A stretch of 63,262 nt of DNA, filler included, from Reclinomonas americana ATCC 50394 (taxonomy: Eukaryota), in the NCBI GenBank assembly GCA_048213135.1. It is 12 parts of 12 records of this genome, joined end to end, with 100 filler letters (N's around TTAATTAATTAA, not from the genome) between each part and the next. Parts side by side here need not be neighbours in the genome. Positions count along the whole stretch, not along the records: positions 16,495 to 30,787 come from AFZH01018897.1; positions 30,888 to 32,520 come from AFZH01018898.1; positions 32,621 to 34,237 come from AFZH01018899.1; positions 34,338 to 40,136 come from AFZH01018900.1; positions 40,237 to 51,736 come from AFZH01018901.1; positions 51,837 to 54,099 come from AFZH01018902.1; 6 more parts are not named here. One strand, 5' to 3'. Below the pieces are notes generated by a model, which saw only the letters and a program-made list of their open reading frames with translations, ran no database searches and was not told the origin of the DNA. The position numbers were made by a program, and so were the translations under genes. Position 1 is the stretch's first letter; each line of letters begins with the position of its first letter. This document shows positions 16,495-53,544 of this stretch, piece after piece.

Positions 16495-17062
16495 CGCACA
16501 CACCGTGAGAGACAGAGAGGAGAAAAGAGAGGAGAGAAGCGAGGAGGAGGGCACGCACAGTGGAGGATCCGCCACCATTGCACGAGCCGTAGCTCCAGGC
16601 CTTGGCCGGGCATCGATAGAGGCCTGCCAGCAATGCAATCAATCACATATGCATGCATGCACATGTGAGCACACACACAGAGAGAGACGCACCTTTTGCG
16701 GGGCCAGCAACTGTGCCCGACACTGTGTGTGCGCGCACGCGTATGTGTGTGAGTGAGTAGTGAAGGAGTGTGAGCAATCAATCACACACACACACAAGAG
16801 CACGGAACTGCACATGGCGGTGTTATCCGAGTGACCAAACACACACCAGCCACAGTTGGAGTGCGACACACAGCCGCCACAATCCTCCACCAAGTAGCAC
16901 GTCTGTGTAAGTTCAGAGAGTAAGTGAAGTGAGCGTGTGAGAAGTGCGTGTTATACACTCTCTCAGACGCACATCGGAGGGCATGTCGATGTTGCTCGCA
17001 TGCACAGCGACGACTGCGATGATGAGCAGAAGCGCAAAGTGCGCCAGCACAGAGCGCAACAT
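16495..17062 (-). CDS. Signal-peptide PSI-domain (plexin repeat) protein, 3' end in the gap
   Basis: MLRSVLAHFALLLIIAVVAVHA; spliced CYLVEDCGGCVSHSNCGWC..CMSG..CPAKAWSYGSC. Confidence 0.7.
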
Positions 17063-17129
17063 GAGAGTGAGCGAGTGAGTGGAAAAAAACAAGCGAAAAT
17101 TTCTCACATCAATCAAGCTGTGTCGAGAC

Positions 17130-18581
17130 ATGGTCGAGCCCGGAATCGTCTATGTTGTTGCGTTCCCCTCGCGCTCATGTACCCAGTGTGTTCTCCAAGT
17201 CGCCTCATCTCTCTCTCTCTCTGCGCTTGTGTATGCACGGGAAACAGGGTCACTTGCCACCATTCTTTCCGCCAGCAAAGGTACTGTGGCTGTCACACAA
17301 GCGTGTGCATGTGTCTGTGTACGAGCCTCTGCTCTCTCTCCACACACACGCGCGTGCAATCGCCGTTTCCTGTGGGCGCGCGCGTGTGTGTGCGATGTAC
17401 ATGGCGGTGATGTGAATCAGCACTCTCTCTTCTCCCTACGCCCTCACCGCCTTCTTGTTGTTGCTGCAGGTGAGGCGGCTAATGGAGGAGTTTGGCACCG
17501 TCGACCGAGTGTACCTGGAGCCGGAGACACAGCGGGAACGAGAGAAGCGGTTAAAACGCGGTGGTAATCGCAAGGTGTAGTGTGATGTCACGACGACACG
17601 AGCGTGCGTGTGTGTGCCTGCTCACCCTGCTTGTTCGCAGATCATGTACAAGGAGGGTTGGGTAGAGTTCACAGACAAGCGAGTGGCCAAGGCCGTGGCG
17701 CGCACTCTGAATGGCACTCCCATCGGTGCGGTGTCTCAATCTCGATCATCTCTCCGTGCATTGCTGACGGCGTTTGCGGTGAGCAGAGAAGCGCGGCCAT
17801 TGGGCCAACGACATGTGGGTCCTCAAGTACCTGCGCAAGTTCACGTGGAAGCACCTGACGGAGAGCATGGGTGAGTGGCCGACGTCAGCATGCGACTGGC
17901 GAGTTGTCTCCGTCTCACTCTCGCTCTCTCCCTCTCATGCACAGCGCGAGACCAGGCGGCCAAGGACCAGCGGATGCGACATGAAGTGGAGGCAGCGAGA
18001 CGAGAGCACGACGACTACCTGCAGCAAGTGGCGCAGGCCAAGGTCGTGGAGGCCATGGAAACGAGAAGAGTGCGTGCATGCGCGCACGCGTGTGTGTATG
18101 CATGTTCTTGGCTCGCCGACTCATCGTGCGCGGGTGGTTTGGCAGGCGGAGAAAACTGGCGTCACCAGCAAGCCTCGTGTGCGTCGCGTGTTCCGGCAGC
18201 TCAAGGCGATTGTCAGTGACGTGGATGGCGTTGGGGCGACGTCGAAACAGGCGACAGCTGCTGCTGGTGCGGATGAGGCGATTGTGCTGCCGGCCGAGAT
18301 CAAGCTGCCCGGCAACCCGAGCGGTGCGAAGAAGAGCAAGAAGCGACAAAAGGGCCCAGCCAGCATCGAGTTGCTTGAAAAGGTGGGTGCGACGATCGAT
18401 TGGCTCGTGTCACACGCTGTAGCTCATTTTTCTTGTTGCGTTCACACGACAGCTGTTCACGGGTCGGTCGAAGAGTCGTGGAGATCGTGGCGGTGATGCC
18501 GATGACGACGATGGGGATGAGCAGGTGCCTCGGAAGCGAAGGAAACTCAGCTCCGGTGCTGCCAGCGACGGCGATGACTGA
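17130..18581 (+). CDS. ESF2: Pre-rRNA processing protein ESF2/ABT1
   Basis: Spliced GIVYVGHLPP..VRRLMEEFGTVDRVYL..YKEGWVEFTDKRVAKAVARTLNGTPIG..DMWVLKYLRKFTWKHLTE. Confidence 0.9.
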
Positions 18582-18644
18582 GTGCAGAAGAGTGAACGAA
18601 GGCAGTGTCCTCATGTCATTTCGTCCTCATTTCTCTTCCGATCA

Positions 18645-20353
18645 ATGGCCACGCGCGTTGCATCCCTCCGTGAACGCGGCAACGAGCTGTTTCGTGCCAA
18701 GTCGCACACCGCAGCGGCCGAGCAGTACACGCTGGCCCTCGAGGCGTGTGCAGAGGTGCGAGGCACCGCCGATCAAGTGAGCGATGCCGACGAAGCTGCA
18801 TTGTGGGCCAATCGCGCCGCCTGTGCACTGGCCCTCGTTGCGTCGCCTGCCCCCCACTGGCACACGTCTCTCCTCTCCAGCAATCTCACCAGCAATGCAC
18901 ACAGCACGATGCCGTGTCGGCGATTGATGATTGCAGTCATGCCTTGGAGCTGCAGCCGCGTTACGTCAAGGCGCTGTACAGGAGGCACTCGGCGCTGGTG
19001 GAGTGCAGTCGACGCGAAGAGGCGGTGGCAGGTGCGTTCCTGTTTCTCTCGCTCTCTCTCTCTCTCCATTCTCTCTGTCTCATGCCCGGCAGATCTGAGA
19101 CAAGTGCTGCAGATCGAGCCCAACAACGAGAGTGCCATGCGGGCACTGACGGCTCTTGCCGACGCGCTGGAGGTCGTGCCGGTGGAGTTCAAGCAGGAAC
19201 CGGTGAGTGTGCTGCATGCAGTCGCGCGTGATGGTGCTCATTGCATCCGCTCACATGTCTTTGCTGCCAGCTGCGTCATGCGGCCGTCACCGCAGCGCAC
19301 CTGCCACGACCACTCACCACACACTCGTATGCGGCGTCGCCGGATGGCATCGATGCCAATCTCGTCATCTTCTTGCATGGCGGTACGTTGCGGCTGGCGT
19401 GTGCGATCGTGACTCTTCTCACGTTGCTTCGCTTGGCAGTGGGTGACTCGCACGAGAATTTCATGACGCTGGGTCGCCGGATGGCGCTGCCGCAGACGGC
19501 GTTAGTGGCGCTGCGTGCGCCACTGGAGCTGCCACTCGGGCTCGGATGGTGGTGGTTTCCGGCCAACATTGCCGGCCTCGATGCCACCGACATGGAAGGC
19601 GAGCGCTCGACCCAACAGCGCGTGTTTGGATGCGTATGCTCACTCCACAACCACCATGTGCCGTGTAGATCTCGGCCTCGAGGACCTGGAGCCTGCTGTG
19701 TGCGTTCCCGGTCTCGCACGTTCCGTCAGGAGTCTGCTCCAGTTCATCAGCAGGCTGGAGGGCGAGCTCGGATACGCTCGTGAACACATTTTCCTGTACG
19801 GCTACTCGCAGGTGACTCGGCAGAGAGAAGAGTGGCGAGACTCATACTCAGAGATCGCTCACTTTTGTTGTGTAAGGGTGCCTGCTTGGCACTGGCGACG
19901 GCACTGGAGTGCGAACGGGAAGCAGGCTCCGCCCCACTCGGCGGCATTGTCGGTGTCTCGATCTCCGAGGTGGACGTGTTGCAAGAGTCGCTGGCCACAC
20001 GGTCGCCACAAGCGCTGCGCACGCCGGTGCTGTTGACACATGGTCGGCGCGACAGCACGCCATCATTGACTCGAGTTCGCGAGCTTGTCGCGGCGGTGAA
20101 TGCACTCTGCACCGCCGGCGACTCGTCCCCGTCTGCGATCGCGGTGCACGAGTGCGACAAGGCGCACGACATGGTCAACAGCGAGGTGCGTCCGTGCATC
20201 ACCACCCTTCCCCCGTCTCGTCATTCTCATCCCTCACCACGACTGCAGGCAGAATCACGGGCGATTATGGAATTCTTTGCTGCGCATTTGCGACGACGGC
20301 AGCCGCAGTTGGAGAGAGAGCAGGGGTTGTACGAGGTCAAGACTGGCAAATAG
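18645..20353 (+). CDS. TPR (dicarboxylate-clamp type) domain fused to a phospholipase/carboxylesterase alpha/beta hydrolase
   Basis: LRERGNELF..ANRAAC..KALYRR TPRs; then NLVIFLHG, GYSQG nucleophile motif, LLTHGRRD and KAHDM. Joined in frame by intron 19203-19270. Confidence 0.8.
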
Positions 20354-20397
20354 ACACTGATTGGTATTGCTTTCATTAACAAACGGCACGCGTCACA

Positions 20398-25342
<4,945 letters not shown>

Positions 25343-25979
25343 TTTTTTGCGTTGCGTGTGTGAAATGTGTTTGCCATGGACAAACGAATGCAATTGCGGC
25401 AAGAGCACTGTCCACTGTCCATTGTCCACGATGTCGCGCGGCGATGGCGAAGGTCGCGCCTCTTTGCGCATGGTTCGTGTTTTCACAGAGAGACATGTGA
25501 GGGAGAGTGTGTGAGGGGAGAGAGAGAGAGAGAGGTGGGGGTGTTGTGGCACGCTTCTGCAATTCTCAATCTTGTTTTGGCATTGACACACACTCTTCTG
25601 CTGCTTCTTTTCACTCTCACTCTCTTGCGTGATTGAGGCACGCTTTTTCCGCCTGTTTTTTCCGTTTCGCGATGAGAGCATCAGCAGTGCGGGCGTCGCC
25701 AAACGACGATAACCCACCGTTGATTTCGATCAAGTGTCATTGTGATGAGGAGGGCGATGGCGCCTCGCTTGTCTTCTCGGTCCGTGTGTGTGCGCGTCTT
25801 TGTCGTTGAACTGTCACGCCATTTCCCACGCACGCACACACGCACCACCTACGCCCCCGCTGTATATGTCTCGCGCGTGTGTGCATGTGTGCGTGTGTGT
25901 GTGTTTGTTTGGGCGCGCGCAGACGGAGTTTGTGATTTTTGGTTCATTTTCGTTCACACTCCCACACACACAGAGTGGA

Positions 25980-28900
25980 ATGAAGACGCCGAGTTTCGGT
26001 GGCGCGCCACACCCAGCACACATTCACGCGCATGCGGATAAGACCGGCTACCTCTTTGTACATAGTTGCGTGCGTGTGTGTGTGTGTGTGTGACAGTGAA
26101 GAGAAATTGACTGTTTGTGTGTGTGTGCAGGATTCGATGAGGATGAACCGACGCCGACGCCCATGACGCCTGGCGAGCGTGTGTGGATTGTTTTGGCACA
26201 TGATATGCTGTGGTTTCACACGTCGCCTGAGGTTCTGTCTTTGTTGTGTGACTGGCTCTCTCATTTCTCTCATTTCTCTCACGCTCACACAACACATCGC
26301 AGCTGCCCGCGGTGGGTCAGATTAGATTACGTGGGTCGGCGATCATGCCGACTACGGTGAGAGCGTTTGCAATGCTGGCCAAGGGTCCCGACGGTGCCTG
26401 GGTGTTGTACGACGGCGATTCGGTGAACGACAATAATATTCGATCGTGGATCACACACGTTCGCAGCAACCAAAGAGTGCGCAGCTGTTTCTCTCCCCCA
26501 CTCTCTCCGCTCGTGTCATCGCCGCGGTGCTCACTCTTGCGCCTCTCTCGCATCGTGCAGGGCGTGGAGAGCGACGACGATCGCGAAGCTCGAAAGAAGG
26601 TCGCCGAGGAGCATGTTGCGTCTGCAGCTGTTGTCGCCGTGCCTCTCGCCCCTGCTCACCATTCCCTCCCCGTCGCAGGCCGATCGTCATGGACCGGTGT
26701 ACGCCATCTCCAAGTGTGGTTTCCTCATGGACAAGAGTGCGTCGAAACGCCCTCCTCTCTCTCTCTCTCGCTCCCCCCCCTGCGTGTGACCGTCTCACAT
26801 GACTGTGTGCTCGTGCACCATAGCTGCACACTCGACCAAGTTCTGCGTGCTCAGCGGCCCCGAATTCCGCGTGTACCGCAACGTAGAGGTGCTGCACTTG
26901 GTTTCACGAGTCTGCATGTACTCGCGTTGTGTTCGCTAAATAATCGCCCTTCGTCACAGTCGGGAATGGAGCTACTAATTCACATGCATGGCTGCAAGGT
27001 GGAGCAGGCGTCGATGGGTGGTGACAAGAAGCAGCTCGAGCTGCGTGTCACCGATCGCTTCGGTCAGCGTGTGCTCACCCTGGGACCGGCGTTTGGCGCA
27101 CGATTGGCCGACATGGCGCACTGGTTGTCCCACATGCGTTCTGCGTCGACGGTGCGACTCACCTCACACGCTCTCCATGTGTGTGTGTGTGCGCGCGCAT
27201 CTCTCTCACATACTTTCGTTGACCAACAACAGGACTACGAGCTCGTGCATGCAAAAATGATCTTTTCGCGCATGTCCACCGAGTTGCACATGCTGACGGA
27301 CTCGCAACGCCTGATGCCGCCCGGCATCAGTGTCAATGGAGCGCCGCGATCGGCGCACAATGGCCACTCGGCCGCTGCTCTCTCACCTGATCTCCTGACG
27401 CCACCGACGCCGCCCGACACAGAGTCTGACGACAGCTCGTTTGCGCGTGTGCCGACGCCGGAGCCACTGGGTGCGGGCCGTGCCGGGGGTGCGGGTGGGC
27501 CGTCTGCTGCCAACGGTGCAGCAGGAGGTGGCGGTGGTGGTGCAAATGGAGCTGCCGCCAAGCCGCCCGCTAGACCACTTCGTGCGGCAGCCGCCACCTA
27601 TCAGGGTGCTCTAACGAGCATGTTTGATACATCGGCACTGGTTGGCGCCGTCACGAATGCGACGAAGCGGAAAGGTGCCGTGGACAACCCCGACAGCGCA
27701 GGTGTCGCAGGCGCAGCGACGCATGAGAACGGCGCGGCCGCAGCCTATGCAGCATCAGCCGCCGCCGCACCAACTGAAGAGGAGGGTGGCGACTTGCTAC
27801 AGCGTCATCACCAGCACTACCATGCACGCAATGTGGATTCGTTTTCGAGTGTCTCGCTGTCACGGTTACCGCTCTACAGTTCGGAGACGTACACGTCGGA
27901 GGACGGCACCTCCACCATCGCATCACTGGCCGACTCTCATGCCGACAGGGCGGTGCATCGTAGTTTGGCCGCCACTGCTGCTGCCTCACACATTCGGTCG
28001 AGTTCCGACTCGGTGAGCGGCGCGAGTCATCCTCCGCCGTTTCGCCGCGTCGATTCCGATCCCGAAGCCGTCACGCGTCATCTTGCAGTTACGCAGAAGC
28101 TTGTCGCGTGTCTCTCTTGATGGCCCTGACGCGTGTGAGTGCGCCCGCCAGCGTGCCGAATCGGAAGACCTCAACACCGCCCTGCAAGACTGCACCGATT
28201 TCACGAATCAGTCACCGCCCTCGCCCATGTCTGTGGGACACAGCCCCAGTAGTGTGCGCAGCGATTTTGGACTGATGGAGAACGGGCGCCACGTTCCAAT
28301 CCCCATGATTCAATTCACGCCACCTGACCACCAGCCACCGCTGGTGCCGGTAAGTTCTTGTGCACCCAGTTGTCTTCACTGCTCGTCAGTGTGTCCTCAA
28401 GAAACACTTTCCACGAGTGCAGACCATAAGTCCATTGTCGTTGCGGAAGGGCGTCACATTTGCGGACTTTGTGGTGGAGGTGCGACCACCACCGAAACGA
28501 CCGCAGTCGTCGGCCATCACTGCACAGCAACGAATGACGCAGGTGCGTGACGAGCAGTTGGCCAGCATGTTTTTCATGTCTCGATCGCTCATGTGTTTTT
28601 GCGCCACCGACACAGAACAAGACCAAGTTCGACGACACAAAAGCCAAACTCAAGGAGCGCCTGCGTGAAAAAGTACGAAAATTGCAGCAAAAGGTTTGTT
28701 GGTCAAGCGACAAGATGTGTGTGCTGACCGGCGACACTCATTCCTTTTGCATTTGGCGTGCAGCCGGATCCGCGACAAGTGCTGAAGCATGTCGGCGCGA
28801 TGGCTGCAGCTGCGGGTCATCACGATGCAGACAATACCGCGTCGGCAACCAGGGAAGAAGAGGACACAACAGCAGTGACGACTGCGGTTACGGCGTTTTC

Positions 28901-30787: not shown

Positions 30788-31624
30788 NNNNNNNNNNNNN
30801 NNNNNNNNNNNNNNNNNNNNNNNNNNNNNNNTTAATTAATTAANNNNNNNNNNNNNNNNNNNNNNNNNNNNNNNNNNNNNNNNNNNNAAATGCTGGCATC
30901 AGTGGTGTTGACGTTGTCGGCACCGCAGGTTTGAAATCGCGCTCCGCTCCCACATCACCTTCACCTCGTCGGCGACAGGCCGGCGCATCGCCGTCGCCGC
31001 CGCCACGCCTGACCGTCCACCAATCGCCCCTGGATCCACCACGCTTCAACGGCGCCATCAATGCGATGGTGTCACCGCGAGGCCAGCCGCCACCACCAGC
31101 AACTGTGCCTGCTGCACCGTCGTCCGCACGCTTTACACTCGCCATTCCTCCGCAACCCGTCTCGGCACGTGGTGTTTCCAGCAACACAACGAGCAGCAAG
31201 ACGAATACACCACGAGGAAGTGTGTCGGCGCGCTCAACCGTGCCGTCGCCTCGCGTCCAGCCGTCACCGCGGGTGAGCGAGAAGCGAAGAATAGAGAGTA
31301 TCAGCGCATTCGTCTCACGCTACGTGCGTTTTTTTCTCCAGCTGTCAATGTCGCGCTCCTCAACTTCAGAACGTGTTGTCAAGGCACTCGGCAACAGCTC
31401 ATCCGCATCGTCACGCGGCGGTCGATTGTTGCGTGCTCCTCGTCGCTGATGGTTGATTGTGTGTGCGTTCGACTCACTTTTGCTGGGTGCGGTGCAGAGC
31501 TGGACGCGGTGCGGCAGCCAGTGTTTCAAAGAAATAATCTCTCTTTCCATCTCTCCATTCACCACCAATCACTGTTAATTCACCACGATAAACCTTCCTG
31601 TTCACTACCGCCCTAATGGACTAT

Positions 31625-34337: not shown

Positions 34338-35669
34338 GGGGGGCAAAAGAAAGGGAGTGGATCGTGCCTGCAGAATGCGTGACCGTCTGCACAGGAACAT
34401 CGGCACGGGCTACTTTGGTTGCCGCACGAGCGAAGGCCAGTTCGATCCCGACATGTTCACCAAGACCGCCAGCCAGCCGCAAGTCAAGATGATTGAGATC
34501 AAGCTGAGTCAGGGCGCCAAGCCCGGTCACGGTGGCGTGCTGCCCGGCACCAAGGTGACGCCCGAGATTGCCGAGGCCCGTGGCGTCAAGGTCGGCGAGG
34601 ACTGCAACTCGCCACCGCGCCACAGCGCGTTCACCGGACCGCGTGGACTCGTCGAGTTTATCGCCCGTCTGCGCGAGTTGTCCGGCGGCAAGCCCATCGG
34701 CTTCAAGCTGTGCCTCGGTCGGCCGGAGGAGTTTACGGCTGTCGTGCACGCCATGCTGGTGAGTGGTCGGTGGGAAATACAGTGTGTGGTGGTGGTCGGC
34801 ATGATACTCACACGGGAGCAGGAACTCAACACGTACCCCGACTTTATCACTGTCGACGGTGGTGAGGGTGGCACGGGCGCTGCGCCGCCCGAGTTCAGCA
34901 ATCACGTGGGCACGCCACTCGTGGAGGCTCTGTCGTTTGTCGACAATGTGTTGGAGGGTGCCGGTGTGCGTGGCCAGGTGAGCATGTGATGATGATGAGG
35001 GTGGTGATGGCTCCTCGCTTCCGCTGACGATCGTGCGCAGGTCAAGCTGATTGCCTCTGGAAAAATCCTCTCCGGCTTCTCCGTCGTGCGCACGCTGGCG
35101 CTGGGTGCCGACGTGTGCAACTCGGCTCGCGCCATGATGTTCGCGCTCGGATGCATCCAGGCACTCAAGTGCAACACCAATCGCTGGTGAGTTTCAGCAC
35201 TGCAGTGTCGCGATATTGTTACTATTGTCATTCACGTGCGCGCGCGCCTCAGCCCGACTGGTATCGCCACACAAGACCCCGAGCTGATGAAGGGTCTCGT
35301 GCCCGGCGACAAGGCCGAGCGTGTGGAGCGCTACCACAAGAAGACCATCAAGTCCGCGATTGAGCTGATCGGTTCGTCGCATGCAGTCTCTCCTCACGCA
35401 GATCCACCCTCCGCGCTCATCCCTCTCTGACAGGAGCCATTGGACTCAACTCCCCCGAGCTGCTGCGCCCGGAGCATGTGATGCGCCGAGTCAGCTCCAC
35501 TCGCGTGGCGTCGTACGCCGAGCAGTACCCGCGTGTGGCCACCGGCTGCTTGCGGACGGGCCAGGGACCGACGGCACTGCAGTCGGCGTGGGAAGCCGGC
35601 TACAAGCTGCTGCACCCGCCACCGTGCATGAATGCCCCGCACATGCTCGAGTCGTCCACCAGTGCGTAG
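34338..35669 (+). CDS. FMN-binding glutamate synthase family protein (stand-alone YerD-like type), N-terminus in the gap
   Basis: NIGTGYFGCR, IEIKLSQGAKPGHGG, PDFITVDGGEGGTGAAP, and Fe-S motif GCIQALKCNTNRCPTGIATQD. Confidence 0.9.
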
Positions 35670-35849: not shown

Positions 35850-37172
35850 TTACTCGTCCGTCTCTGTCAGTTCGTCCTCGTGCAGCCAGGCCGGATCGCT
35901 CAGGTCGCAATTGCCGCCGCACAGCACCACACCGACACTGCTCGGCGGGGTGAATAACAAATCGCTGTCTTGCTCTCGTGATACAGAAAGAAAAACTCAC
36001 CGGCGCACGTGCGGATGACGACGACAGAAATCCGCAAATGCCTTGGTCTGCGTCACGGCCACGCCCACACCAGCACTCGGCTCGATAACCTGCGTGACAG
36101 GGTGAGCGAACATGATGAGGCTCGTGAAGTGAAAAACAAAGGGCGTACCAGCTTCATGCGCTCGCCAACCAGCCGCATACACCTCGCAATGCTGCGCTCC
36201 GACACACAAATCACCTCGTCGACCTGATCACGAATCACAGGCCACGTCAGGTCGCCCAGCGACGTTCGCAGACCACTGCAGGGGGCACGGTGAGATGATG
36301 TGCACAAACAGAATTCGCACACCAACACCAACGCAACTCGGCAATCGTCTGCGGATTCGTCTGCGGCTGCCGCTCGCCACACTGCTTGCCACGCCACGCA
36401 TCATCGGCACCCCGCGGCTCCGCACCAATCACCAAAATCGACGGCTTGATCGCCTTGGCCGCAATGGTGATGCCCGAAATCAGGCCACCGCCACCAATCG
36501 GCGCAATGATGCAGTCCAAGTCGGGCGCCTGCTCCAGCATCTCCACCGCAATCGTGCCCTGCCCGGCAATCACATCGGCATGATCAAACGGCGGAATCAT
36601 TGTCGCACCCGTGCGCTCCACAATCTCCCGCGCCGCCGCCTCTCGACTCTCCAACGTCGGCACACACTCCGTGATGGTCACCCACTCGCCAAACCGCTGC
36701 GTCGCCCTTCGCTTGATCGCCGGCGCCGTTGTCGGCATCACAATGAACGCCGGAATGCCTCGATCGGCCGCCGCGCATGCCAGTGCCTGCGCGTGGTTCC
36801 CCGACGAGTGCGTCACCACTCCGCGCTTGGCCTCCTCATCGGAGAGCCGCAGCACGGCGTTGTAGGCACCGCGGACCTTGAAGACACCGCACTGTGTGTG
36901 TGGAGGCATGCATTGTCAGCCTCTCGTCGACGAGCGTGTATGTGTCGATGCGCACCTTTTGCAGGTTCTCGCACTTGAAGAGCACCTCCACTGGTGCCGA
37001 GGCCATGGACGACATCTGCATGTGTGGTGGTGGTGGTGAGATGACAGTGATGAGTGTCTCTCTCTCTCTCTCTGCATACCTCACGCGATGGCAGCAGCGG
37101 AGTCACATGCACAATGTCGCGCACACGCTCATGCGCAGCACGCACATCGTCGAGTGTCACACAGGCGGCCAT
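35850..37172 (-). CDS. PLP-dependent serine racemase / threonine dehydratase family protein
   Basis: FKCENLQKCGVFKVRGA, HSSGNHAQA, IAGQGT, GGGGL, TIADGL, IEPSAG and LCGGN motifs. Confidence 0.93.
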
Positions 37173-42085: not shown

Positions 42086-42156
42086 AGAAAAATACTCGCG
42101 CGCGCGCGTTTTTTGTCTCTCTTCTTCTTCTGTCGTGTGAACGCGACAACAACAAC

Positions 42157-42498
42157 ATGGGCTTTGGCGACGGTGCGGTGTATGCACTTGGGAGGGGCAA
42201 GTGCGGACCTCTCACTCTTCTCTTCTCTGTGTGTGTTTGCGTGTTTGCAGACATTTTGGATCACTTGGGTGGTGTGGGCAAGGCCATTGAGACTGGCATC
42301 GACGTCGACCACACGGTGCACGACGCGAAGGACCACCACTGGTGGGATGGTGAGTGAGAAAGAGAGTGTGAGACAGAGAGTGTGTGATTCGCGTCATTCA
42401 TTCATTCGTCATGACACGCAGCGGCCAAGAGCGGTGTTGGCGCCGTGGTGAATGGCGTGGAGGCGTGGGGTGACTTCTCCAGCGGTGACTGGATCTAA
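42157..42498 (+). CDS. 63-aa three-exon orphan peptide (Asp/His/Trp/Gly-rich)
   Basis: Exons 42157-42172, 42251-42349 and 42422-42498, with phase-matched GT-AG introns, give MGFGDDILDHLGGVGKAIETGIDVDHTVHDAKDHHWWDAAKSGVGAVVNGVEAWGDFSSGDWI-stop. Confidence 0.65.
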
Positions 42499-42709
42499 AC
42501 ACACAATGCACAGGTGTGCCGTTTCCGATCGACAGTGGGCTTTTGGCGGCTCTCTCTCTCGCTCGCTCGTGAAGCAAATGAATTCCTCCCCCTTTCTCGT
42601 GAGCAAGCGGAGGGAGACGTTGACGGGAGGAGACTTGTGCTGCAACACAACGCATAGATTACATTGATGGGGGCAAGCTGTGGGCCCCCCTAAATTGTTT
42701 TTCTCCTCG

Positions 42710-45445
42710 TCAAGCGCACATGTTGCCGGGTGTGACGTGTGCGGGTGACGGTGCCGGTGGGGCGGATGGAGCGGCGGAGGCCGGTGGCGGAACGAACACC
42801 TCGTCAGTGCCCGGCACTGGTGACTCCTTGCCGTTTGCCGTGGACCGTGCGGGTGACACGGCGCGTCGAGATCGTCGCTTGTGGCGGATGACCAGGAACG
42901 CCACCACCAGTGCGACAATGAACCCGCCACCGACGCCCACGGTCGTGCCAATGATAATGGCATTGCGCTTGGTATTGGAGGACGAGGAGCTGGTGGTGGT
43001 GGTGGAGAGCGAAGAGTCGCATTGTTGCGACATGGAGGGCGGTGTGGTCGAGTAGCGGTAGGCCGCGGGTACCGAGGAGGAGCAGTAGGAGACCGACTGG
43101 CCAGTGCTGCCGCCGCCCGACGCCACACAAAAGGTACTCGAGTTGGTGTTGACAAACCAGCGGTCCATCATGCCCGTGTCTTCGTGGTACTGTATGTGAC
43201 AAACTACAATCAGACAGGGCAGAGCAGAGTGTGGGGAGAGAGGAGAAGAGAAACGCACCAGGAAGTGGCAGTGCAGGAAGATGTTGCCGCCCCATCGATC
43301 CAGTGAGATGCGGGTCCGAGTGGAACCAGCGTAGGCTGGAACCGTGTCGCGGAAGTCGCCCAGCGGACCCCACACAGTTGTGTAGGCGGTGGGATTCGAA
43401 GCGCCCGTCGAGTCGGTCACACTCAGCACCTGCAGTCGTCTTGTGAGTTCCCATAGCCTCTCGCGCTTTTTTTCTCTCACTCTTCGCTCACCTGGAACGG
43501 ATAGACGTGCAGGTGGATGGGGTGCGGCGTCTGTCCGCGGCCCTGGATGGTGAACTCCTCGACCGTGCAGGTGGAGCCAACGTGGCGGTACTCCATGGTT
43601 TCGGTGCCCCACGGCACATACGGGCACTCGCCGTATGTGTTTGGATTCGCAGTCATGCAGTCACGGCCGGTGCTGGTGACAGCGATGGTGGTGAGTCTCT
43701 TTCATACACAAGGCAGCGTGTGGGAGGAAAGAATGCTGACAAACCATTGCAGCGCGCAGTCCTTGCCGACGCCGAGCCACGCATGGCTGCCCGAGGTGAC
43801 ACCGGTTTGTTCGACTCCGAGCTGCCAGCTGCCGACCGTGGACGCACTGGTCAGATCGCGCAGATAGTACGGGCGCGTGATGCCGCTGGAAGTCCACGAC
43901 GGTGTGCTCATGCTGACGACCGAGCCGGCGACATTGAGCGTCACCAGATTCTGCAGGAAGAGAGCCTCGTAGTCGGCAGCTCGGCGCTGCGGGTTGCTCA
44001 TAAAGTAGTACGTGCCTGTGTGCGTCGTGAGTGAGTGTGTGAGTGAGAGGAGGTGGGGCGACGGCACTTTGGGTTGACAACAACTCACCCGCCGTGGAGC
44101 ACATGTAAGCAATGGACACACGGCCGGCCGGCGGTATCGGCACCATGGTCACATCACGCGGTCCGTTGATGAGGAAGATGCCGTCCTGCGCCAGCAGGCG
44201 CATGCTGCACGCCGACGATCCGTTGGCCGTGCCGGTGCGAATCTCCAGCTCGAGGTACACGTCGCCTACGGCATTGACGACCTCGAATCGGCGCCACTCG
44301 CCCGGTTTCACCGTCAGCGTCGGCTGCAGCTGGCCGTTCACCAGGTACACGTCGGTGAGATTGACAGTGCTGCTCAGGCTGAGGTTGAGCGAGAGCGGGT
44401 CGTTGATCTCCGTGCGCAGACTCGGGATCGAGATGATGCGGAACGGGTCGGTGGTCGGATTGCACGAGCACATGGCGGTGTGGGAGAGCACCAGCAGGTC
44501 CGATTGCATGGCCGAGTATGTGGCTGGCGGTGTCGAAGACGACGGCCAGTCGACGATAATGCCGCCCACCAGACCACCAGCCACGTGCAGTGTCGACGCG
44601 CCATGAACTGTTTACACAATGGCATGTCAGTGACAGTGGTGGTACAGCGACCTGTGAGACCGCGGCTCACCATGAGAGTGGTACCAGTGAGTGCCAGGCA
44701 TGTGGTCCGAGGGGATGCTGAACGTGTACGTGCGGCTCTCGCCCGGAGCGAGAATGACGAACGGATTGTCGACACTCGGATCCACGTGCTGCGAGGAAGA
44801 ACGAATTGGTGAGACGGACTCCCCAGCTCCTCTTGCGACAGATGCACGGAGAGGGGTCAGACGCACCAAGCCATGTGTGTGCACGTTGGCATAGTTGGGA
44901 TTCATCAGCATGTTGCCAGTGTGGGTTGTCGAGCTGGTGGTGTCGGTCGGCAGCTTATTCACCAATGTCAGTCTGAAAGCATGCGGATCAGCAGCTGGAA
45001 GGCGCAACCCCGGAAAGCAAAAGGCACACACTGCCTCACCTGACCGTGTCGCCCGGCTTGACAATCATGGTCGGCCCTGGAACCTGATATGATCACGATT
45101 GAGATATCTCCGCATGCACAAATCGGGCGCTTACCACACACGTACAACACTCACCGAGCAGGCGCCATTGACGCAGAACGCGCGCGTGTTGAACGAGAAG
45201 GCAGTGGCGTTCATGGTGTACTGCTCCACCGACATGGTGAACTCGAGGACACCATTGGAGGAGGTCAACGCGGTCGGCGCCTGCAGCGTCGGACCCGCAA
45301 TCACTGTGCTGCTGCCACACGCACTGGTGATGCCAATGCCGCCGTTGCCGGTGGTCGCCTGCGTGCATGTCACCGTCTGCGCACTGGCCGACAGCGGCAT
45401 AACGATCGCCAAGAGCACTGCCGCAGTGGCCAAGACCATATGCAT
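42710..45445 (-). CDS. Type I membrane-anchored multicopper oxidase
   Basis: Signal peptide; Cu motifs NVHTHGL, WYHSHVHG, HPIHLHV and LHCHFLYHEDTGMM; Ser/Thr stalk, TM IIIGTTVGVGGGFIVALVVAFLVI, basic cytosolic tail. Confidence 0.92.
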
Positions 45446-45769
45446 GTGCAATCTCCGAACGGTCATCACTCTCGCGATCGTTCACTCACTCTTCTTCTTT
45501 TCTCTCTCTCTCTCACTCACTCACTCTCAATCTGTATTCCCTTCTACACGGGAGTGCGCTGAACAAGTGGTGATGGTGGTCGCTTAACCTCGGCGCACCA
45601 ACACAAATGCAATCGAGAGAGAATGCGTCGCGAAGCCGACACGAATATGCTATCGAACGATTACATTGGATCTCAAATCGCCGCGCGTTGCAACGTTGCG
45701 ATGCAGAATACTGACGACCCGACCCGACCCGACCCGATACATATAATTCCCCGCTCAGCCTCTTTCTTT

Positions 45770-48700
45770 TCAATTATGATTCTTGCTGCCGTGGTGCGGT
45801 TCACCTCCGGATCCTTGCAACTGGCGAAGTTCACGCATGCGTTCCGAGGCGTGTCGCACGCTTTGTGCGAACTCGTAATCGCTGGTCTCCAGCCGCCTCC
45901 ACATGGCCACCAGGCGCACGTCGGGAAGCGTGGACAGGCTGTGGGGGTGATGGTAATGGCGGTGGTGGAGGTGACGGCTGAGAGCGGGTGACAGAGAACG
46001 AGAGGACTCGCGGGCTTGAGTTAGCGCCGTTACTGCGGGAGTCCTGCTCCGACTGCTGTGCAACAGGGCGTGATCATCGAGAGCGCGACCCCATTGCACC
46101 GCCGGTGGAGAATCCTCCACTGTCGGAGCCGGCAGTGGCGCTGTGGGAGGGGGTTCCACTGAGTGCCGCCGAGGAGAAGCCGGGAGACGAGGCCGACGAC
46201 AGAGGCGGGAAGGTGAGACCAGTAGAGAAGGTACCCTGCTCGCCACCAACACTGCTGCCGCCGCCGCCACCGCCGCGCAGCTGCGGACTGCCGCTGGTCA
46301 GAATCGATGTTATGCCGGCGTGTGCCGACGCCGGCGCTGGCGACATGACTCCGGCCGCAGCGGAGCGAGGCGTCATGCGCGACTGCTGCTGCTGCAGCTG
46401 CAAGTGTTGTTGCAGCTGGTGTTGCGTCAAGCGCGCCTGTCGCGAAGACAGCTGCTCGTCGAGACGACGCGGAGTCTCCATGGTCAAACTGGACATGCGC
46501 TGCATGGCCTCGTCCAGCTGCGCGGCCAGCGACGAATCCGATGGCAACGGCCCTGGATCACTTTCACCCTCCGGATACTCAAACGCTGTCGTCGGCGAGT
46601 CAGTCACGTGCAGCAAGAATGCACAAGTAATGAATCAACAAAACCTCGTGTGCGATGCTTGGCCTTCATCAGCTTTTGCTGCGCGGTGGTGCCCACCGGA
46701 TACGCCGGAGCAGGGCCAGCTGGACCCGACTGCGATGTCGTAATCAGTGTGCCGGCAGGTCGCCGACGCACCGGTGCGGCACGAATGGTAGATGCCCCAG
46801 GCGCCGCGGCCGTTGCCGTTGCCGTTGCGGTTGTCGTCACCGCAGCGCCGGATGGCGTGGTGCCGCGTGACGAGGACTGAGAGGCTCCGGGTTTGGTACC
46901 GCGAGAAGAGGTTCTGCATTTTTGTGCACAGCCAGACAGACAGACGATTCGTTGAGGGCTCACTGGACACTGCTCTTGGTGCAAGTCTCGTCACGCACCT
47001 CAATTTTGGTTTCTTCTTGCGATCCTTTTCTCCAGTCTTCGATCGAGAAGAGGCACTGTCGCCACGATCGGTGCCGCGGTCGGCGCCCGTCGAGTCCCCT
47101 GACACGGACTCGGTGTCCGACTCGTCCAGATCCTCTGTCGCACCAATGAACAGTCAGCGACTCCACACAACACACCCATTCTTCGTCATCTCATGACACT
47201 GACCAGAGTCTCTCGATTCACCCCTGCCGGCGTCCGAACCGCCTCCATACGAGTCCCTCCACCGCAGTGATGTTGACACGTGCAGTGGCGAGGAAGGCGA
47301 CTGTGCGACACACACCATATGTTAGACGAGGAAACAAATCAATAATCAATAACATTACATGTCCACAGACCGGCTCAATGGTCAGCGCGCCACCATGCGC
47401 TCCGCGTGTGGCAGAGCCGGAGGCGCCCGGCGGAGGCGGGCCTGGTCTTTGCACCAGTCGATCTGCAGTGCCCAGTCCGTCACAGAGGAAACCAACATGA
47501 AACAAACATCAATTGTCACCCACCATCTTCGCTGACGGAGCGCGCAGTCTCACGAGCCGCACGCTCCTCCGGTTCCCAATACTCGGCTTTCGAGAAAAGA
47601 AAACACACACAGCGGTCAGACGCGATGCGCTACGTGGAGAGCACACATCCAGGCACACCTTCATCCTCCTCTTCCTCCTCCGCCTCGTCCTCCTCGTCCA
47701 ACTCTTCGTCCTCGTCCTCCTCACCATCGTCCTCATCGTCGTCCGACGGCAGATCAAACTGAATCACGTGCTGCAGCGGGTTGACCAGCAAATCGAGGTG
47801 CGGTGATGGCACGTCGCCTCGTGGTGCTTCCACTCCACCCAGCGACCCGGAGGCACTCCCACCAATATCACCACCGACTGCTCCCTGTCGACTGGAAGGG
47901 CGCGACGACACACGACCCACTGCGGCACGGAGACGCCACACAATGCATCAGACAGCGTTGTGCGCACAACAAACGAATGACAACGAACATGCTTCGGCAA
48001 CCGACATGCGAGTGGAACCGGCTCCGTTGGAAGCCGTGGCGGCGGCAGAAGATGCGGCGACAGCGGCGCGCAGCTGGCCCTCCAGCTGGAGCACCAGTCG
48101 CTCCTGCATGTCGGGCGACATGGGACCCGGTGGCCCCTCGGTGCCACGCACTTCAATCGTGCGGATGCGCGCACTGGCACCGAGAATGAACTCATTCGAC
48201 ATGGTCGCCGCAGCCTCGTCGAGCTCGGGCGTGTCGGAGACGTGCTCCGGCGGAAACAAGTGAATGTTATCGGGGATTTTGAAGACGAGAAAGGAGAAGA
48301 ATTTGCTCCCCTGCGTTGCGCTGAGGTAAGAGACGCACTCCCTCGCAGCAAGCGAGCAATGCAGAAAACGCGCAACATCCGTGTTGGCACTCTCCAGATT
48401 GCAAGAGATGCGGGGTGTCAGCGTGCGCTGGTTCAGCAGCGATAGTGGGTTCTGCGAGCGACAAACGCGGTGATGAGGACGGAGAAGCAAATCCTCCACT
48501 TCCGCCGACACGAACCGTGTGCTTGGTCATGCGCATGACCATGTCACTGGAGTCGACGGGACTCGTGGGCGACGTCACAGTGGCACTACTGGGTGAGCGG
48601 TACCGCGACGCAGTCGGCGTTGTGGTCGCCGGCGCACTGTCCATGGCGGAGAACGCCGCCACGTAGCGCTTCTGAATGTCGAGGTAGATGTTGGTGGCGA

Positions 48701-49757
48701 TTTTCTTAATGTGCTGGAAGCGCAGCAGACGGGCTCCTGTGCCATGGAAAGACGGTGAGTCACTTTCACAGAGAGGCGAATCGCAGCGGCCGACCAACCT
48801 CGGTAGAGGTCCCCGCGGCCTTCGGTCAGGATCTCGTTGATGGTGCGCGCAATCTCTCGCATGTGCACACACTCAAAGTCGTCTTGCGACAGAAAGTTGG
48901 GCACGAGCAGCACGAACGGCGGCATGGTCGCACGCTTCGGTTGATGCATCGGCACACAGGTGACAAAATGCGCTCCGTACAGCACCGTGTCGTCGGTGAG
49001 GAGTCGAGTGCCGACGCGCACACGAATGTCGGCGTGGTGCAGGTTGAGTGGCGCCACAATCATCACCCGCCCCGTCACCTCAAACGGCGGCAGGTCGTAG
49101 TCTTGGTAGATCTGGGCGACAGGAGATGATGAGAGGAAGGAGAGGAAGGAGGGAGAAGGAGGAGTGACAAGTCGCGACCTTTTCAAACGACATCATGCAC
49201 GGCGGCACTGCCGACGGGTTACACATGACATCGCCAGCGTACACACGATCCACCAGCACATCACGCGCTCGCAGCTCCGACACAATCGGCGCAATGTGCG
49301 TCGCCGATCGTCGCGACACCAACACCAACACAAAGCTTCGCGACAAGAGCTGCATGCCACACACACTGTGAGCGGCACACAAGACACAACGAATAGAACA
49401 GACAAGCAGACATGTACGAAACGCGCAGCTCCTCCGCAGCACCCGCACGCAAGTACAACGACGGCTTCTCCTCGCGCCAAAAGTGCAGTTTGGTGAACTC
49501 CCCAATGACACCTTCTCACACACACGCACAGTGAGCCACTGCACACACAGAGAGAGAGAGAGAGACAGAAGAGCAGCTCTCACGTGCCTTCCACCACCAT
49601 GATGAGCAGCGGGCGCGGTGGAGGCTCAACCGCCGAGGCTGCACACACACGCGCGCGCGAACGTCAGTGAATGAACAAGACGCACAGACAAGCAGTAGTC
49701 ACGCTCTGTGCGTGTCTCTCTCTCACCCTCACCGCCTCCGCCTCCTCGCACACTCAT
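45770..49757 (-). CDS. Large hypothetical protein with a degenerate HAD/FCP1-like N-terminal region and low-complexity C-terminus (exon structure and 3' end uncertain)
   Basis: A chain of same-strand exons; LLIMVVEGT..LYLRAGAAEELRLLSRSFVLVLVS resembles FCP1/NIF motifs I-II. Confidence 0.4.
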
Positions 49758-49825
49758 GGCGTGAGAAGAGAAGATGATGGACGGAAGAGCGCGCGAAAAT
49801 TTGTAATATAAAAACGACGACGCAG

Positions 49826-51261
49826 ATGATGTTGTTGCGCGGGCAACAACGAGCTCTCCTTCTGCTCATCACAATCGTCGCCATCTGTGTCGCATCTGCA
49901 AGTGCTGCCATCAAGCCTCCACTGCACACCTCCGGACGCACTATTCTCGATGCCAGTGGCCAGCACATACGATTGTCATGGTACTCTCAGTCTTGATCGT
50001 TCTCCCTCCGCGCGCTCACCATCGCGTCAGTGTCAACTGGTATGGCATGCAACTGTCGCGGTATGTGGTGGCTGGTCTGGAGCAGCAACCGCTGTCGGCG
50101 ATTGCGGCGACAGTGGCACGTCTGCAATTCAACTGTGTGCGCCTGGTGTTCTCGCTCGAGGCCATCGACAAGGGCATGACGCAGGTCGCCGATGCGCAGT
50201 ACCTCACGGCCAATCCGCAGCTTGTCGGCTCCACTGTCATGCAGGTCATGGATGCCACGGTCAAGGTGTGTGTGTGTTGTCTTGTTTGTCTTTCTATTTC
50301 TCCGCGTGCGTGCTGATCGCGACGCATGCAGGCACTGACCGACGCGGGCGTTATGGTCATTCTCAACAACCACAACAGGTCGGGGACGGAGTGGGGGAGT
50401 ACGCCACTCAGTGGACTCGCTTTCGTTGCTCATTCTCTCCCTTTACAGCGATGCTGGATGGTGCTGCTCGCTGACCGACGGCAACGGGTTGTGGTGGACC
50501 AAGAGCTACCCGGAGGAGCAGTGGATTCACTGGCTGGTCGCGCTCACGCAGCGGTACCGCAGCAATCCACTGGTGGTCGCGTTCGACTTGCGCAACGAGC
50601 TGCGTGCCGTGGAGGTTTGTGTGTGTTCCATGGTCGCCGACTCACAGTGTCACCGCTCACTGCTGCTGTCGGCAGGATCCGACGACCAAGAAGACGCTGT
50701 ATACGCCGACGTGGGGCGACAACAACAAGCTCACCGACTGGGCGGCGGCAGCCGAGCGTGCAGCGACGGCTGTGCTGGCCGTCAATCCCGACATGTTGAT
50801 CATTGTCGAGGGACTCGACTATGCCCTCAACCTCACGCCGGCGTGGCGTCGACCGATCCAACTCCCGCACCCCGATCGTCTCGTCTACTCGGCGCACAAC
50901 TACAGCTGGGATTTCCCCGCTGATAACTACGACTTGTTCCGCGCCTACCTGTTGCGTGACTTGGGGTTGGAGTGATCGTCTCCACACATCATATGTCTCT
51001 CACGCATGCACAACACACAGGATTGAGCAGTGGGCGTACTTGGCGACCAACAACACGGCGCCAGTGTGGCTCGGCGAGTTCGGCACCAACGAGCAGGGCC
51101 CGTGGTGGTCCAACATGATGCGTTTCCTCAACGAGACCGGCATCGACTGGGGCTACTGGCCGCTGGACGGTGAGGACTCGTACGGCATTCTGCAGGCCGA
51201 CTACAAGACGGTGCGCGACCCGTGGAAGGTGGCCGACCTGCAGAGCATCATGCACCCGTGA
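49826..51261 (+). CDS. Secreted glycoside hydrolase family 5 (cellulase-like)
   Basis: Signal peptide, CVNWYG, FNCVRL, VILNNH, DLRNE (acid/base), YSAHNY, PVWLGEFG (nucleophile) and WGYW. Confidence 0.92.
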
Positions 51262-51836
51262 AAAGAAAAACAACTCACCAACGTGAGTGTACTTTCGTTT
51301 CCTAATCATTTCGTCGATTTTTTTAATTCTCGCCCGCATGATGCGACGAAAGAGGGGAAAACAACAACAACAATGCAAAGAACGCTCCAAGCCATCCATC
51401 CCTCGTGCTCGATTACATACGTGTGGAGCTGTGTGGCGCGTGTTGGTTGCAGAGTGGAGAGGGAGGAATCGTGTTGTGAGCCGAGACGCAACGATGACGG
51501 CTTTCGTGGTTGCTGCGGATAAGCTGCGATTTCCCCGTATGTTGACGATCTGTACAGAGTGACCCTGAGTGAGTGGACATGCGATTGTTTTCCCCGCAGG
51601 AGAGACGGTGCACGGAACCGGACGGGGTGACTGGGTTGTGAGCTGTAGCCCTCGCCGACGCGAGACGTGCGAGTGGGCAGCAGCTGACGGCCCTCCTCCT
51701 CCTCCTTGTACTCTGCGATGATGGTCAGCAAGCGAGNNNNNNNNNNNNNNNNNNNNNNNNNNNNNNNNNNNNNNNNNNNNTTAATTAATTAANNNNNNNN
51801 NNNNNNNNNNNNNNNNNNNNNNNNNNNNNNNNNNNN

Positions 51837-52330
51837 CGCGGCCAAGCCACCCGCAGCCGCACCGAGCGCAAACAGGCCGACCTGCACGAGGAAGTACAGC
51901 AGGAAGCCGGCGCCGATGCCGACCGCTGCCGCAATGGCGATCTGTGTGCGGGGGGGCATGAGCTGGTGGTGGACGCACAGATGGAATGGCAAGACAAAAA
52001 AACGCAACCGACGGCCACGTCGCCAGCGAAGTGTGCTGCCGCAACACCATGTACATGCCGCCACCCGCCGCCGCCGCGCCCACAAAGAACAGCAGCCACT
52101 GCGAGCGGGGAGTGCGTGAGTGCATGGAGAGGGAGAGAGACTGAACGATCAATCAACAGCGTCGCAACTCGGAACAGGCGATAGCCAAACAGGCAGAAGA
52201 TCTGTGCGGGTGGAGGGGGTAAGAGACGCGACTTGATGAGCAGCAAGTGAGTGGAAAGAAAAGAGACAGACCAGGCCAGCAATGATGCCGAGCGCCGCAA
52301 AGATGCCTGTGAGAGCAATTGATTCAATCA
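51837..52330 (-). CDS. TMEM198/TM7SF3 (DUF4203)-like multipass membrane protein, partial; tail probably at ~51500-51736
   Basis: IFCLFGYRLFRV, followed by successive Gly/Ala-rich TM helices. Confidence 0.65.
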
Positions 52331-52850
52331 GCACACACAGCACAATCACCGATGCATCGCAGCGCAAAAATATAACACACACAGAGAGAGAATCACACCC
52401 ATAACAACAGTGTGTCTTCTATGTGTGTGTGTGTGTATGAGTTACGCAACCCTCCTCCACTGTCAGGTCTGAAGAATCGCAACGAGAGAGAGAGAGTCAT
52501 GGGTGAGACATCTCTCCACACAAACGAAAACGAACAAGACAACGCACCATATGCCGAGGCCACTGTTTGTAGGCGCGAGACAAAAGAGAACAGTTGCCAG
52601 CAGAGCGGGTGTGTGTGAGAGAGAGTGAGAGAAAAACGACAAAAACGAAGTTAGCATGAGACGAGTGAGTGAGTGAGTGAGAAGGGAGAGCGAACCGTGC
52701 CACATGAACGGCAACACGGCCGCTGTGTGCGCCAAGTTTTGCACGAGTCCGCCACCTTGCTGTCGCACCATTGTAACAAAGTCAAAAAAACAAACAACAC
52801 ACACGACGGAAAATTCGCACCGCGCACTCACTCTGTCACACTCGCGCACA

Positions 52851-53544
52851 ATGTTCTCCAACAGACACGAGCGACACACCGTGGCCACTGTCGGCTCCTC
52901 CTCATTCTCATCCTCGTCGTCTGTGCTGGCGAATCGATCGCAACTTGGTGGACTTCTCTCTTCTTCCTCTTCCTCCTCCAGTGCAGCCAGTCGCTTTGTT
53001 CCGCCAGCGGCCTCGTCGGTGGTGGGCGTCGTGGATCGCGACCGCACGCCCGCAGAGATCCTGGGACGCGTGCAGTTTGCGTTTGACGAGCTGCGAAGTT
53101 ACGCGCATGCAACAGATGCATCATTCGCGTGCGTCGCTCACTCACAGGAGCGTGCGTTACAGGCAAGTATGCGCTGCTGGAGGAGGAGAATGCGAGGTTG
53201 AAGGTGGAGGCGGAGGTGCTGGAGAGCGAGTGTGCGTTGGAGTCGAGGACGCGGTTGGAGCTGGAGCGAGTCATGCGGGCGCAGACTGACGAGGTTCTCT
53301 CTCTCTCTCGCTCGTGTGTGTGTGTGCGCGCGCTTGCTCACTGTGTGCGTAGATTGAGTTGCTGCGACGCAAGCTGGACGATGGTGCGCGCGTTTGTTGC
53401 TAAGTTTGGTTTTGTTGGCGATCTCATGTGCGTGTGTCATGGCATGCAGAGGTGCGCAGTCGGAGTGAGCTGGAGGAGTTGCAGGCGCGCGCTCGCGCGC
53501 TGCTCACGTCGCCGCACAAGCGCTAACGCGGGGCTGGTTTTTTA
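52851..53544 (+). CDS. Small hypothetical coiled-coil protein
   Basis: Spliced FDELRSKYALLEEENARLKVEAEVLE..LELERVMR heptads; intron 53098-53162; both ends uncertain. Confidence 0.45.

Follow-up and report, generated by a model that had tools for sequence, protein, structure and literature searches.

A second abundant class of 5' splice sites, carrying an extra T, in a 63-kb window of the Reclinomonas americana genome

Genes and predicted introns of the window

The window analyzed here, meaning the whole stretch of DNA under study, comprises 63,262 bases (G+C 54-60%) from 12 records of the genome of Reclinomonas americana ATCC 50394 (assembly GCA_048213135.1) joined end to end, and our subject is the donor (5' splice site) of the introns that it contains. 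Besides ordinary donors, which carry a G at intron position +5 (for example GTGCGT), there is a second class, here termed extra-T, that begins with GTT and carries its G at +6 (for example GTTGCGT). The additional base is characteristically a T, the class depends more strongly on a GCGT core, and the preference of ordinary donors for G at the last exon base (position -1) is missing from it. We suggest that these donors may be recognized by U1 snRNP (small nuclear ribonucleoprotein) docked one base downstream of its usual register.

Pfam searches of open reading frames locate eukaryotic genes on both strands, as follows.

Genes matched: a sortilin/BNR/EGF protein, POLD1 (DNA polymerase delta), a glutamate-synthase-type FMN domain, a PALP enzyme, an Alba protein and a RING finger protein
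Further matches: a multicopper oxidase, a GH5 cellulase, an aconitase, a Ras-like GTPase and TPR proteins

Genes were modeled by a dynamic-programming finder that combines codon log-odds with frame bookkeeping across introns and admits GT...AG introns of 25-400 nucleotides (nt). A stage relying on codon usage alone was too weak and recovered too few introns. A donor-agnostic stage, which used a length prior and a model of branch site and acceptor and took GT as its only donor information, yielded many 60-75-nt introns whose CTSAY branch site lies about 18 nt upstream of YAG; it also over-predicted, giving 263 introns including one antisense model, and was kept as a control only. A donor term over intron positions +3 to +9 was added in the final stage; this term is limited to those positions, and exon bases play no role in the selection of introns. 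The final set consists of 26 non-overlapping gene models with 174 predicted introns (115 ordinary, 48 extra-T and 11 other), a typical intron being 60-75 nt long with CTSAY as its branch site and CAG as its acceptor. A high-confidence subset (gene score at least 40, length 40-130, YAG acceptor; n=134) contains 90 ordinary and 37 extra-T introns.

An abundant donor class with an extra T

Extra-T donors begin about 28% of the predicted introns (48/174) and are found in 19 of the 26 genes, where they are interleaved with ordinary donors. The same class emerges from an unsupervised three-component mixture fitted to 146 donor-agnostic introns, which separates an ordinary component (GTGCGT/GTGAGT, G at +5; 49%), a noise-like component (32%) and a sharp GTTGCGT component (19%). 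The heptamer GTTGCGT occurs 35 times in the window versus 15.56±4.27 times in dinucleotide shuffles, a count reached by 0 of 100 shuffles, and 25 of the 35 copies coincide with predicted coding-strand donors. The ordinary equivalent, GGTGCGT, is present 29 times versus 16.26±4.21 in shuffles.

All 37 high-confidence extra-T introns start with GT and end with CAG (34) or TAG (3), and their branch cores are CTCAC, CTCAT or CTGAC situated about 18 nt upstream of the acceptor. Ordinary introns share these branch cores and acceptors and are equally long (Mann-Whitney p=0.40 for length, p=0.78 for branch score). Judged by their sequence, the extra-T introns are genuine U2-type spliceosomal GT-AG introns that constitute a second abundant donor class in the window.

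The extra base is specific: in the donor-agnostic pass GTTGCG was used as a donor at 22 of its 87 occurrences, GTCGCG at 4 of 81, GTAGCG at 1 of 11 and GTGGCG at 0 of 129. Extra-T donors also rely more heavily on the core, as GC occupies the two variable positions in 25/37 of them versus 28/90 ordinary donors (p=3e-4); within the class a GC core outnumbers a GA core by 25 to 3, and C makes up 0.81 of the +5 column. The initial annotation of this DNA had proposed that each common donor has an extra-T twin. Such twins do exist, but their numbers are very uneven, with 19 GTTGCGT versus 22 GTGCGT, 2 GTTGAGT versus 11 GTGAGT, and 1 GTTGTGT versus 11 GTGTGT.

Two other origins for the class were considered and dropped. 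U12-type introns have a 5' end resembling RTATCCTT and a TCCTTAAC-like branch near the 3' end; the heptamers observed here are GTTGCGT, GTTTCGT, GTTGAGT and similar, and the branch is CTSAY as in ordinary introns. An introner-like mobile family was sought by an all-against-all blastn comparison of the 134 introns, which revealed no extended similarity: the best 15 of 268 matches are mostly TG/CA or CT simple repeats, and by donor class the pairs number 28 TT, 109 OT and 100 OO, with extra-T matches not enriched. Since no extended sequence is shared among them, the extra-T introns are not a mobile intron family.

Several related sequences were also noted. Predicted donors with C as the extra base (GTCGCG) occur at 49112-49178 (minus strand), 15407 (plus) and 6631 (minus). 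The donor at 49178, aag/GTCGCGAC (here and below a slash separates exon from intron), starts a 67-nt intron that is retained in the final model; it follows G and is possibly an infrequent relative of the extra-T class that keeps the canonical register. Some GTTGCGT copies outside the gene models (31428-31496 and 17157 on the plus strand, 52450 on the minus strand) are followed by a branch-like CTCAC and then CAG at an intron-like distance, and may mark introns of missed genes or of untranslated regions. Additionally, microsatellites of the (TG)n/(CA)n and (CT)n types are common in introns, for example at 24588-24652 (minus), 26065-26130 (plus) and 54847-54940 (minus), and for this reason GTGTGT-type donors are ambiguous.

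Verification of junctions by protein homology

Nine extra-T junctions pass a check against protein homologs, six of them in POLD1, one in the PALP enzyme and two in the Ras-like GTPase; removal of these nine introns restores a continuous reading frame that matches the homologs. The POLD1 model and its extra-T introns are as follows.

20398..25342, minus strand: POLD1 gene model; 22 introns, 1160 amino acids; donors 7 extra-T, 14 ordinary, 1 other
23222..23292, minus strand: extra-T intron, tgc/GTTGCGTT, 71 nt; gap-free alignment to the hidden Markov model (HMM); best alternative -5.0 bits
22720..22782, minus strand: extra-T intron, aac/GTTGAGTT, 63 nt; gap-free; sole canonical alternative -28.1 bits
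21591..21653, minus strand: extra-T intron, tga/GTTGCGAC, 63 nt; gap-free; best alternative -6.0 bits
21234..21302, minus strand: extra-T intron, ctt/GTTGCGTC, 69 nt; gap-free; best alternative -5.3 bits
21096..21162, minus strand: extra-T intron, tca/GTTGCGTT, 67 nt; one-residue gap five residues upstream; best alternative -2.3 bits
20998..21063, minus strand: extra-T intron, gcc/GTTGCGTT, 66 nt; two-residue insertion three residues downstream; best alternative -1.1 bits
25047..25114, minus strand: predicted extra-T intron, gat/GTTGCGTT, 68 nt; in the unconserved N-terminus, outside the aligned region

An HMM of 55 full-length homologs matches the POLD1 model as one domain at 1646 bits, and the model is 50.6-57.2% identical to the 25 best-scoring of these 55, whose names include a plant, a green alga, a fungus and an amoebozoan. 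One ordinary donor was moved 6 nt upstream by homology, from 24646 to 24652, with a gain of 6.3 bits. Each junction was compared with rival frame-keeping GT/GC-AG pairs within ±30 nt, and the alignment was inspected over ±12 residues. All six extra-T junctions in conserved regions outscore every other frame-keeping pair; those at 23292, 22782, 21653 and 21302 are gap-free over ±12 residues, while at 21162 and 21063 the junction itself is ungapped and a small indel lies 3-5 residues from it. The predicted intron at 25047..25114 lies beyond the aligned region, where a homology check is impossible.

In the PALP enzyme and the Ras-like GTPase the corresponding introns are the following.

36276..36337, minus strand: PALP-enzyme extra-T intron, cga/GTTGCGTT, 62 nt; Pfam PALP profile continuous
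59402..59466, minus strand: Ras-like GTPase extra-T intron, att/GTTGCGTC, 65 nt; within the DTAGQE motif; gap-free; best by at least 4.6 bits
58862..58925, minus strand: Ras-like GTPase extra-T intron, acg/GTTGCGTA, 64 nt; G at -1; gap-free; best by at least 6.0 bits
59029..59100, minus strand: Ras-like GTPase predicted extra-T intron, gct/GTTGCGTG, 72 nt; a competing GC donor, located 3 nt upstream within a variable loop, scores +3.5 bits

At the PALP junction (36337) the upstream exon ends at profile position 217 and the fourth residue of the downstream exon corresponds to position 222, which with one split codon gives exact continuity. The Ras-like junctions were compared with an HMM from 8 homologs, and those at 59100 and 58735 are tentative. 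The Ras-like gene (58571-60134, minus strand) is split into very small exons. Its P-loop is missing, so that the predicted 5' part of the gene is probably wrong; doubt therefore attaches to the three introns predicted first, of which two are extra-T.

These junctions bear directly on the possibility that the class consists of mis-called boundaries, whereby GTT would be exonic and followed 3 nt on by a GC-AG intron, or that it arises from gene-prediction or chance artefacts. Reading the boundary as GTT/GC does preserve the frame, and most introns derive from an ab initio finder whose donor-agnostic pass had over-predicted. Placing a GC donor at +4, however, costs 5.0, 6.0, 5.3, 2.3 and 3.7 bits at five POLD1 GTTGCG junctions and 4.8 and 6.0 bits at two Ras-like junctions, and at 22782, where the donor is GTTGAGT, no GC-start variant is found among the frame-keeping alternatives. 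GC-AG introns were thus rejected, as the GC-start reading lowers the homology score at 7 of 7 testable junctions, by 2.3-6.0 bits. Nor do artefacts agree with the more than twofold enrichment of GTTGCGT over shuffles and its concentration at coding-strand donors, and false positives cannot yield the distribution of the last exon base within POLD1 described below. We therefore consider mis-called boundaries a very improbable source of the class.

The last exon base

An association between donor class and the -1 base, which the initial annotation had put forward, is borne out by the predicted introns. Among all 174, G is present at -1 in 82/115 ordinary versus 8/48 extra-T introns (Fisher p=1.1e-10, odds ratio 12.4). 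The difference is maintained in the high-confidence subset (68/90 versus 5/37; p=8.9e-11), in POLD1 alone (13/14 versus 0/7; p=6.9e-5), in the donor-agnostic pass (73/111 versus 7/35; p=3.7e-6) and among homology-checked junctions only (17/18 versus 1/9; p=3.5e-5).

The same annotation tied extra-T donors to a non-G exon end. A non-G base does prevail, but only to the extent expected by chance. The bases preceding exonic GTTNNG that is not a donor (n=102) are G 0.20, T 0.35, C 0.26 and A 0.19, and G precedes 0.18 of all GTTNNG in the window (n=325), while the -1 column of high-confidence extra-T introns is G 0.14, T 0.32, C 0.27 and A 0.27. The frequency of G is thus indistinguishable from background (binomial p=0.41 for the high-confidence introns and 0.72 for all 48). 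An avoidance of G at -1 was dropped in favor of an absence of preference, since the column matches background: in the extra-T class the preference for G is simply missing and G itself is not excluded. The intron at 52008, previously regarded as the single exception with G, is in fact one of eight among the 48, and one of these eight (58925) is verified by homology.

On the exon side of ordinary donors selection acts at -1 only, with -2 and -3 nearly flat. The extra-T -1 column lies at a total-variation distance of 0.07 from the ordinary -2 column and of 0.62 from the ordinary -1 column. Ordinary donors have a GCGT core in 36% of cases when G is absent from -1 versus 21% when it is present.

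Several individual sites had been named initially as members of the class. Besides the POLD1 intron at 22782, they are the following.

49350..49422, minus strand: predicted extra-T intron, cgc/GTTTCGTA, 73 nt; called in both passes; gene has no Pfam or homology support
53098..53162, plus strand: predicted extra-T intron, gaa/GTTACGCG, 65 nt; called in both passes; low-scoring gene model (score 16)
51942..52008, minus strand: predicted extra-T intron, tcg/GTTGCGTT, 67 nt; G at -1; called in both passes; no homology support
16723..16808, minus strand: candidate intron, gca/GTTCCGTG...ACACAG, 86 nt; after a Cys-rich ...CGWC... exon; not called

The four donor sequences first listed, at 16808, 22782, 49422 and 53098, are all present as written. 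That at 22782 is verified by homology; those at 49422 and 53098, together with 52008, were called both with and without the donor model but have no homology support, and 16808 was not called by the finder. For the last, initially described as belonging to a PSI gene, a Pfam search of its open reading frame gave no family, a PSI domain included, at E<=0.001.

A proposed shifted U1 register

How an extra T could release the last exon base may be envisaged as follows. The T at +3 would push the intronic recognition core G-C-G-T one base away from the cut, so that U1 snRNP would dock one base downstream of its usual register. Intron G+1 would then take the slot of exon G-1 (opposite U1 C9), U+2 would be mismatched, U+3 would occupy the slot of U+2 (opposite A7), and G+6 and U+7 would occupy those of G+5 and U+6. 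The cut would still fall at the only GU present, one base upstream relative to the U1 helix, and with the cut displaced in this manner the last exon base would be released from its G constraint. An extra base that is specifically T is expected from this arrangement because +3 would pair with U1 A7, and the heavier reliance on a GC core is consistent with making up for the U·C mismatch that the shift would force at +2. We infer both that U1 is the reader and that its register is shifted and not bulged, and assign a probability of roughly 0.55 to the reading that U1 snRNP docking one base downstream explains the extra-T class.

The bulged arrangement would keep U1 in its canonical register (G+1 with C8, U+2 with A7), with one U, at +2 or +3, looped out and the GCGU core pairing normally. 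Experiments have demonstrated a +3 (or +2) bulge at human 5' splice sites (PMC4856993). Under a bulge, however, a pair between G-1 and C9 would lengthen a helix of two base pairs, and G should therefore be at least as frequent as in ordinary donors (68/90), whereas it is seen in 5/37, which equals background. A bulge should also select less for T, yet T was used at 22/87 occurrences versus 5/221 for the other three bases pooled. The missing preference for G at -1, the specificity for T and the reliance on the core together favor the shifted register over the bulge, which we consider unlikely.

Pairing energies were computed with ViennaRNA, taking the most stable sub-helix for each of the canonical, shifted and +3-bulge registers, with the standard U1 5' end given in Table 2 of PMC4856993 (AUACUUACCUG), which may not be that of the organism itself. 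For ordinary donors the canonical mean is -5.3 kcal/mol; this register is the best for 87 of 90, and the remaining three form no stable duplex. With this U1 the shifted register is best for only 5 of the 37 extra-T donors, mostly those with A at +5; GUUGAGU-type donors, for example, are most stable when shifted (-2.7 to -4.5 versus 0 kcal/mol canonical). A pairing advantage of the shifted register, which the initial annotation had set beforehand as a test, is absent when the dominant form, GUUGCGU, is paired with a standard U1 5' end. The proposal that G+1 replaces exon G-1 thus agrees with the -1 column and with the specificity for T but brings no energy gain for GUUGCGU with standard U1. Likewise, the two classes do align on one shared heptamer, G-[G/T]-T-G-C-G-T, within the motif G-[G/T]-T-N-N-G-T suggested initially, and U1 would be the presumptive reader of it.

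Several points weigh against the shifted register. With standard U1, extra-T donors average only -0.47 (canonical), -0.34 (shifted) and -0.61 (bulge) kcal/mol, the bulge energies thus resembling the shifted ones, and 27 of the 37 form no duplex below 0 kcal/mol in any of the three registers. A background-like -1 column would also be expected if exon pairing were irrelevant, for instance if another factor reads the class. The introns come from one 63-kb window and mostly from ab initio models, with 27 junctions covered by the homology check. Finally, the site at 16808 is unconfirmed, as the finder picked other donors there and both downstream frames stay open.

In a further alternative, a changed U1 5' end, a second U1 variant or a protein would match U-G-C-G-U and make no contact with the exon. 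Ordinary donors themselves favor a different reader, as their +4 column follows the order C>T>A>>G (C 0.41, T 0.32, A 0.22, G 0.04) and their +3 column is 0.70 G. GTAAGT is nearly absent among them (1/90). Moreover, the class most in need of compensation takes C over A (GC core over GA core, 25 to 3), which is opposite to standard pseudouridine pairing. The favoring of C opposite U1 position 5, with GC over GA, is thus the reverse of the selection expected from pseudouridine 5, and the +3 and +4 columns of ordinary donors likewise run counter to pairing with standard U1 positions 5-6, which suggests that the U1 5' end may have diverged or that something else may read the donors. A hypothetical U1 with G5 and C6 is predicted to make the shifted register best for 31 of the 37 extra-T donors, at a mean of -4.8 kcal/mol, and with G at -1 the bulge would be the most stable register under the same variant. 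This U1 is, however, a construct of our own, and an Rfam search of the whole window gave no match and hence no U1 gene in the window. Among eukaryotes the standard U1 5' end (ACUUACCU) hardly varies, to our knowledge, and a preference for G at +3 is also seen in GC-rich genomes that have standard U1; both count against a different reader, which we regard as improbable. A more speculative combination of the shifted register with a changed U1 is a dual-register donor code, in which U1 positions 5-6 would have co-evolved to match U-G-C-G-U and would dock on either +2..+6 (GTGCGT, with the cut following an exonic G) or +3..+7 (GTTGCGT, with the cut preceding the G). We consider such a code unlikely; if it were true, about a quarter of introns would use a register that is rare in human, and introns would be possible after any coding base.

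Comparison with known 5' splice sites

Human sites with all U1 pairs displaced by one position were reportedly described by Roca and Krainer in 2009 (Nat Struct Mol Biol 16:176), and bulge registers of the helix between U1 and the 5' splice site are said to have been described by Roca et al. in 2012. Shifted-register sites are rare and atypical in human (PMC4856993, PMC9311317). The extra-T donors resemble them in that the cut falls at the normal GU, G+1 would pair where exon G-1 does, and -1 is mostly non-G, as it is non-G in the model shifted site ACA/GUCAAGUAUA (PMC4856993, Table 2). As in a shifted register, the exon base at -1 no longer behaves as a partner of C9, with G in 5/37 versus a background of 0.20 and 68/90 in ordinary donors. 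They differ from the human sites in making up about 28% of predicted introns with a sharp consensus of their own, GTTGCGT, and in that this dominant form gains no calculated stability by the shift with standard U1.

According to PMC4856993 (Tan et al. 2016), all validated noncanonical U1 registers amount to 1.5% of 201,541 human donors, and 68 bulge +2/+3 sites were predicted, of which 54 remained after curation. Extra-T donors are like the latter in having one extra nucleotide, a U beside U+2, between GU and the downstream pairing block. Unlike them, they are about 20-fold commoner here than the total of noncanonical human registers, and the G at -1 that a bulge should still favor is not enriched.

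A compensation between exon and intron that gives two classes of 5' splice site is also reported in PMC11732430. The present donors agree with this in that those without G at -1 carry a stronger intronic consensus (36% versus 21% among ordinary donors, and a GC core in 68% of extra-T donors). They differ in that such compensation ordinarily keeps G at +5, whereas here the whole intronic block is displaced by one base. A tunicate study (PMC13326754) raises a shifted register merely as a possibility. No GTTGCGT-type donor class or lineage-wide shifted register was found in a literature search that covered subscription journals thinly and is not proof of absence, and a metagenome scan with a POLD1 exon gave 29 loci of at most 68% identity, in none of which the donor pattern was found. 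The shifted register is thus an already known mechanism, and what is new here is the abundance of the donor class and its consensus; the mechanism itself is only partly supported.

If the pattern is genome-wide and is found in RNA, R. americana would offer a naturally occurring case of U1 binding being separated from the cut in more than a quarter of introns, something examined in human at rare, atypical sites only. This would open to direct test the questions of how the cleavage site is fixed after U1 departs, what limits the co-evolution of the U1 5' end and the donor consensus, and whether a shifted register loosens the constraint on coding bases where exons end. About one intron in four here would also be mis-annotated by any gene finder whose donor score covers six intronic positions in a single register, provided that the pattern holds genome-wide.

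Further observations in the window

At 11 places, for example 6720-6819, 13497-13596 and 16395-16494, paired blocks of 44 N enclose 12 readable bases, and several gene models are interrupted. A long open frame at 12720-13496 (minus strand) contains a weak reverse-transcriptase (RVT_1) match (E=8e-5, below the Pfam cutoff) that may be a retroelement remnant. In the gene with the glutamate-synthase-type domain (plus strand), two in-frame donors lie 12 nt apart, at 34966 (cggt/GTGCGT) and 34978 (ccag/GTGAGC). The donor at 34978 fits the Pfam profile coordinates slightly better than that at 34966, and a tandem-donor ambiguity is possible.

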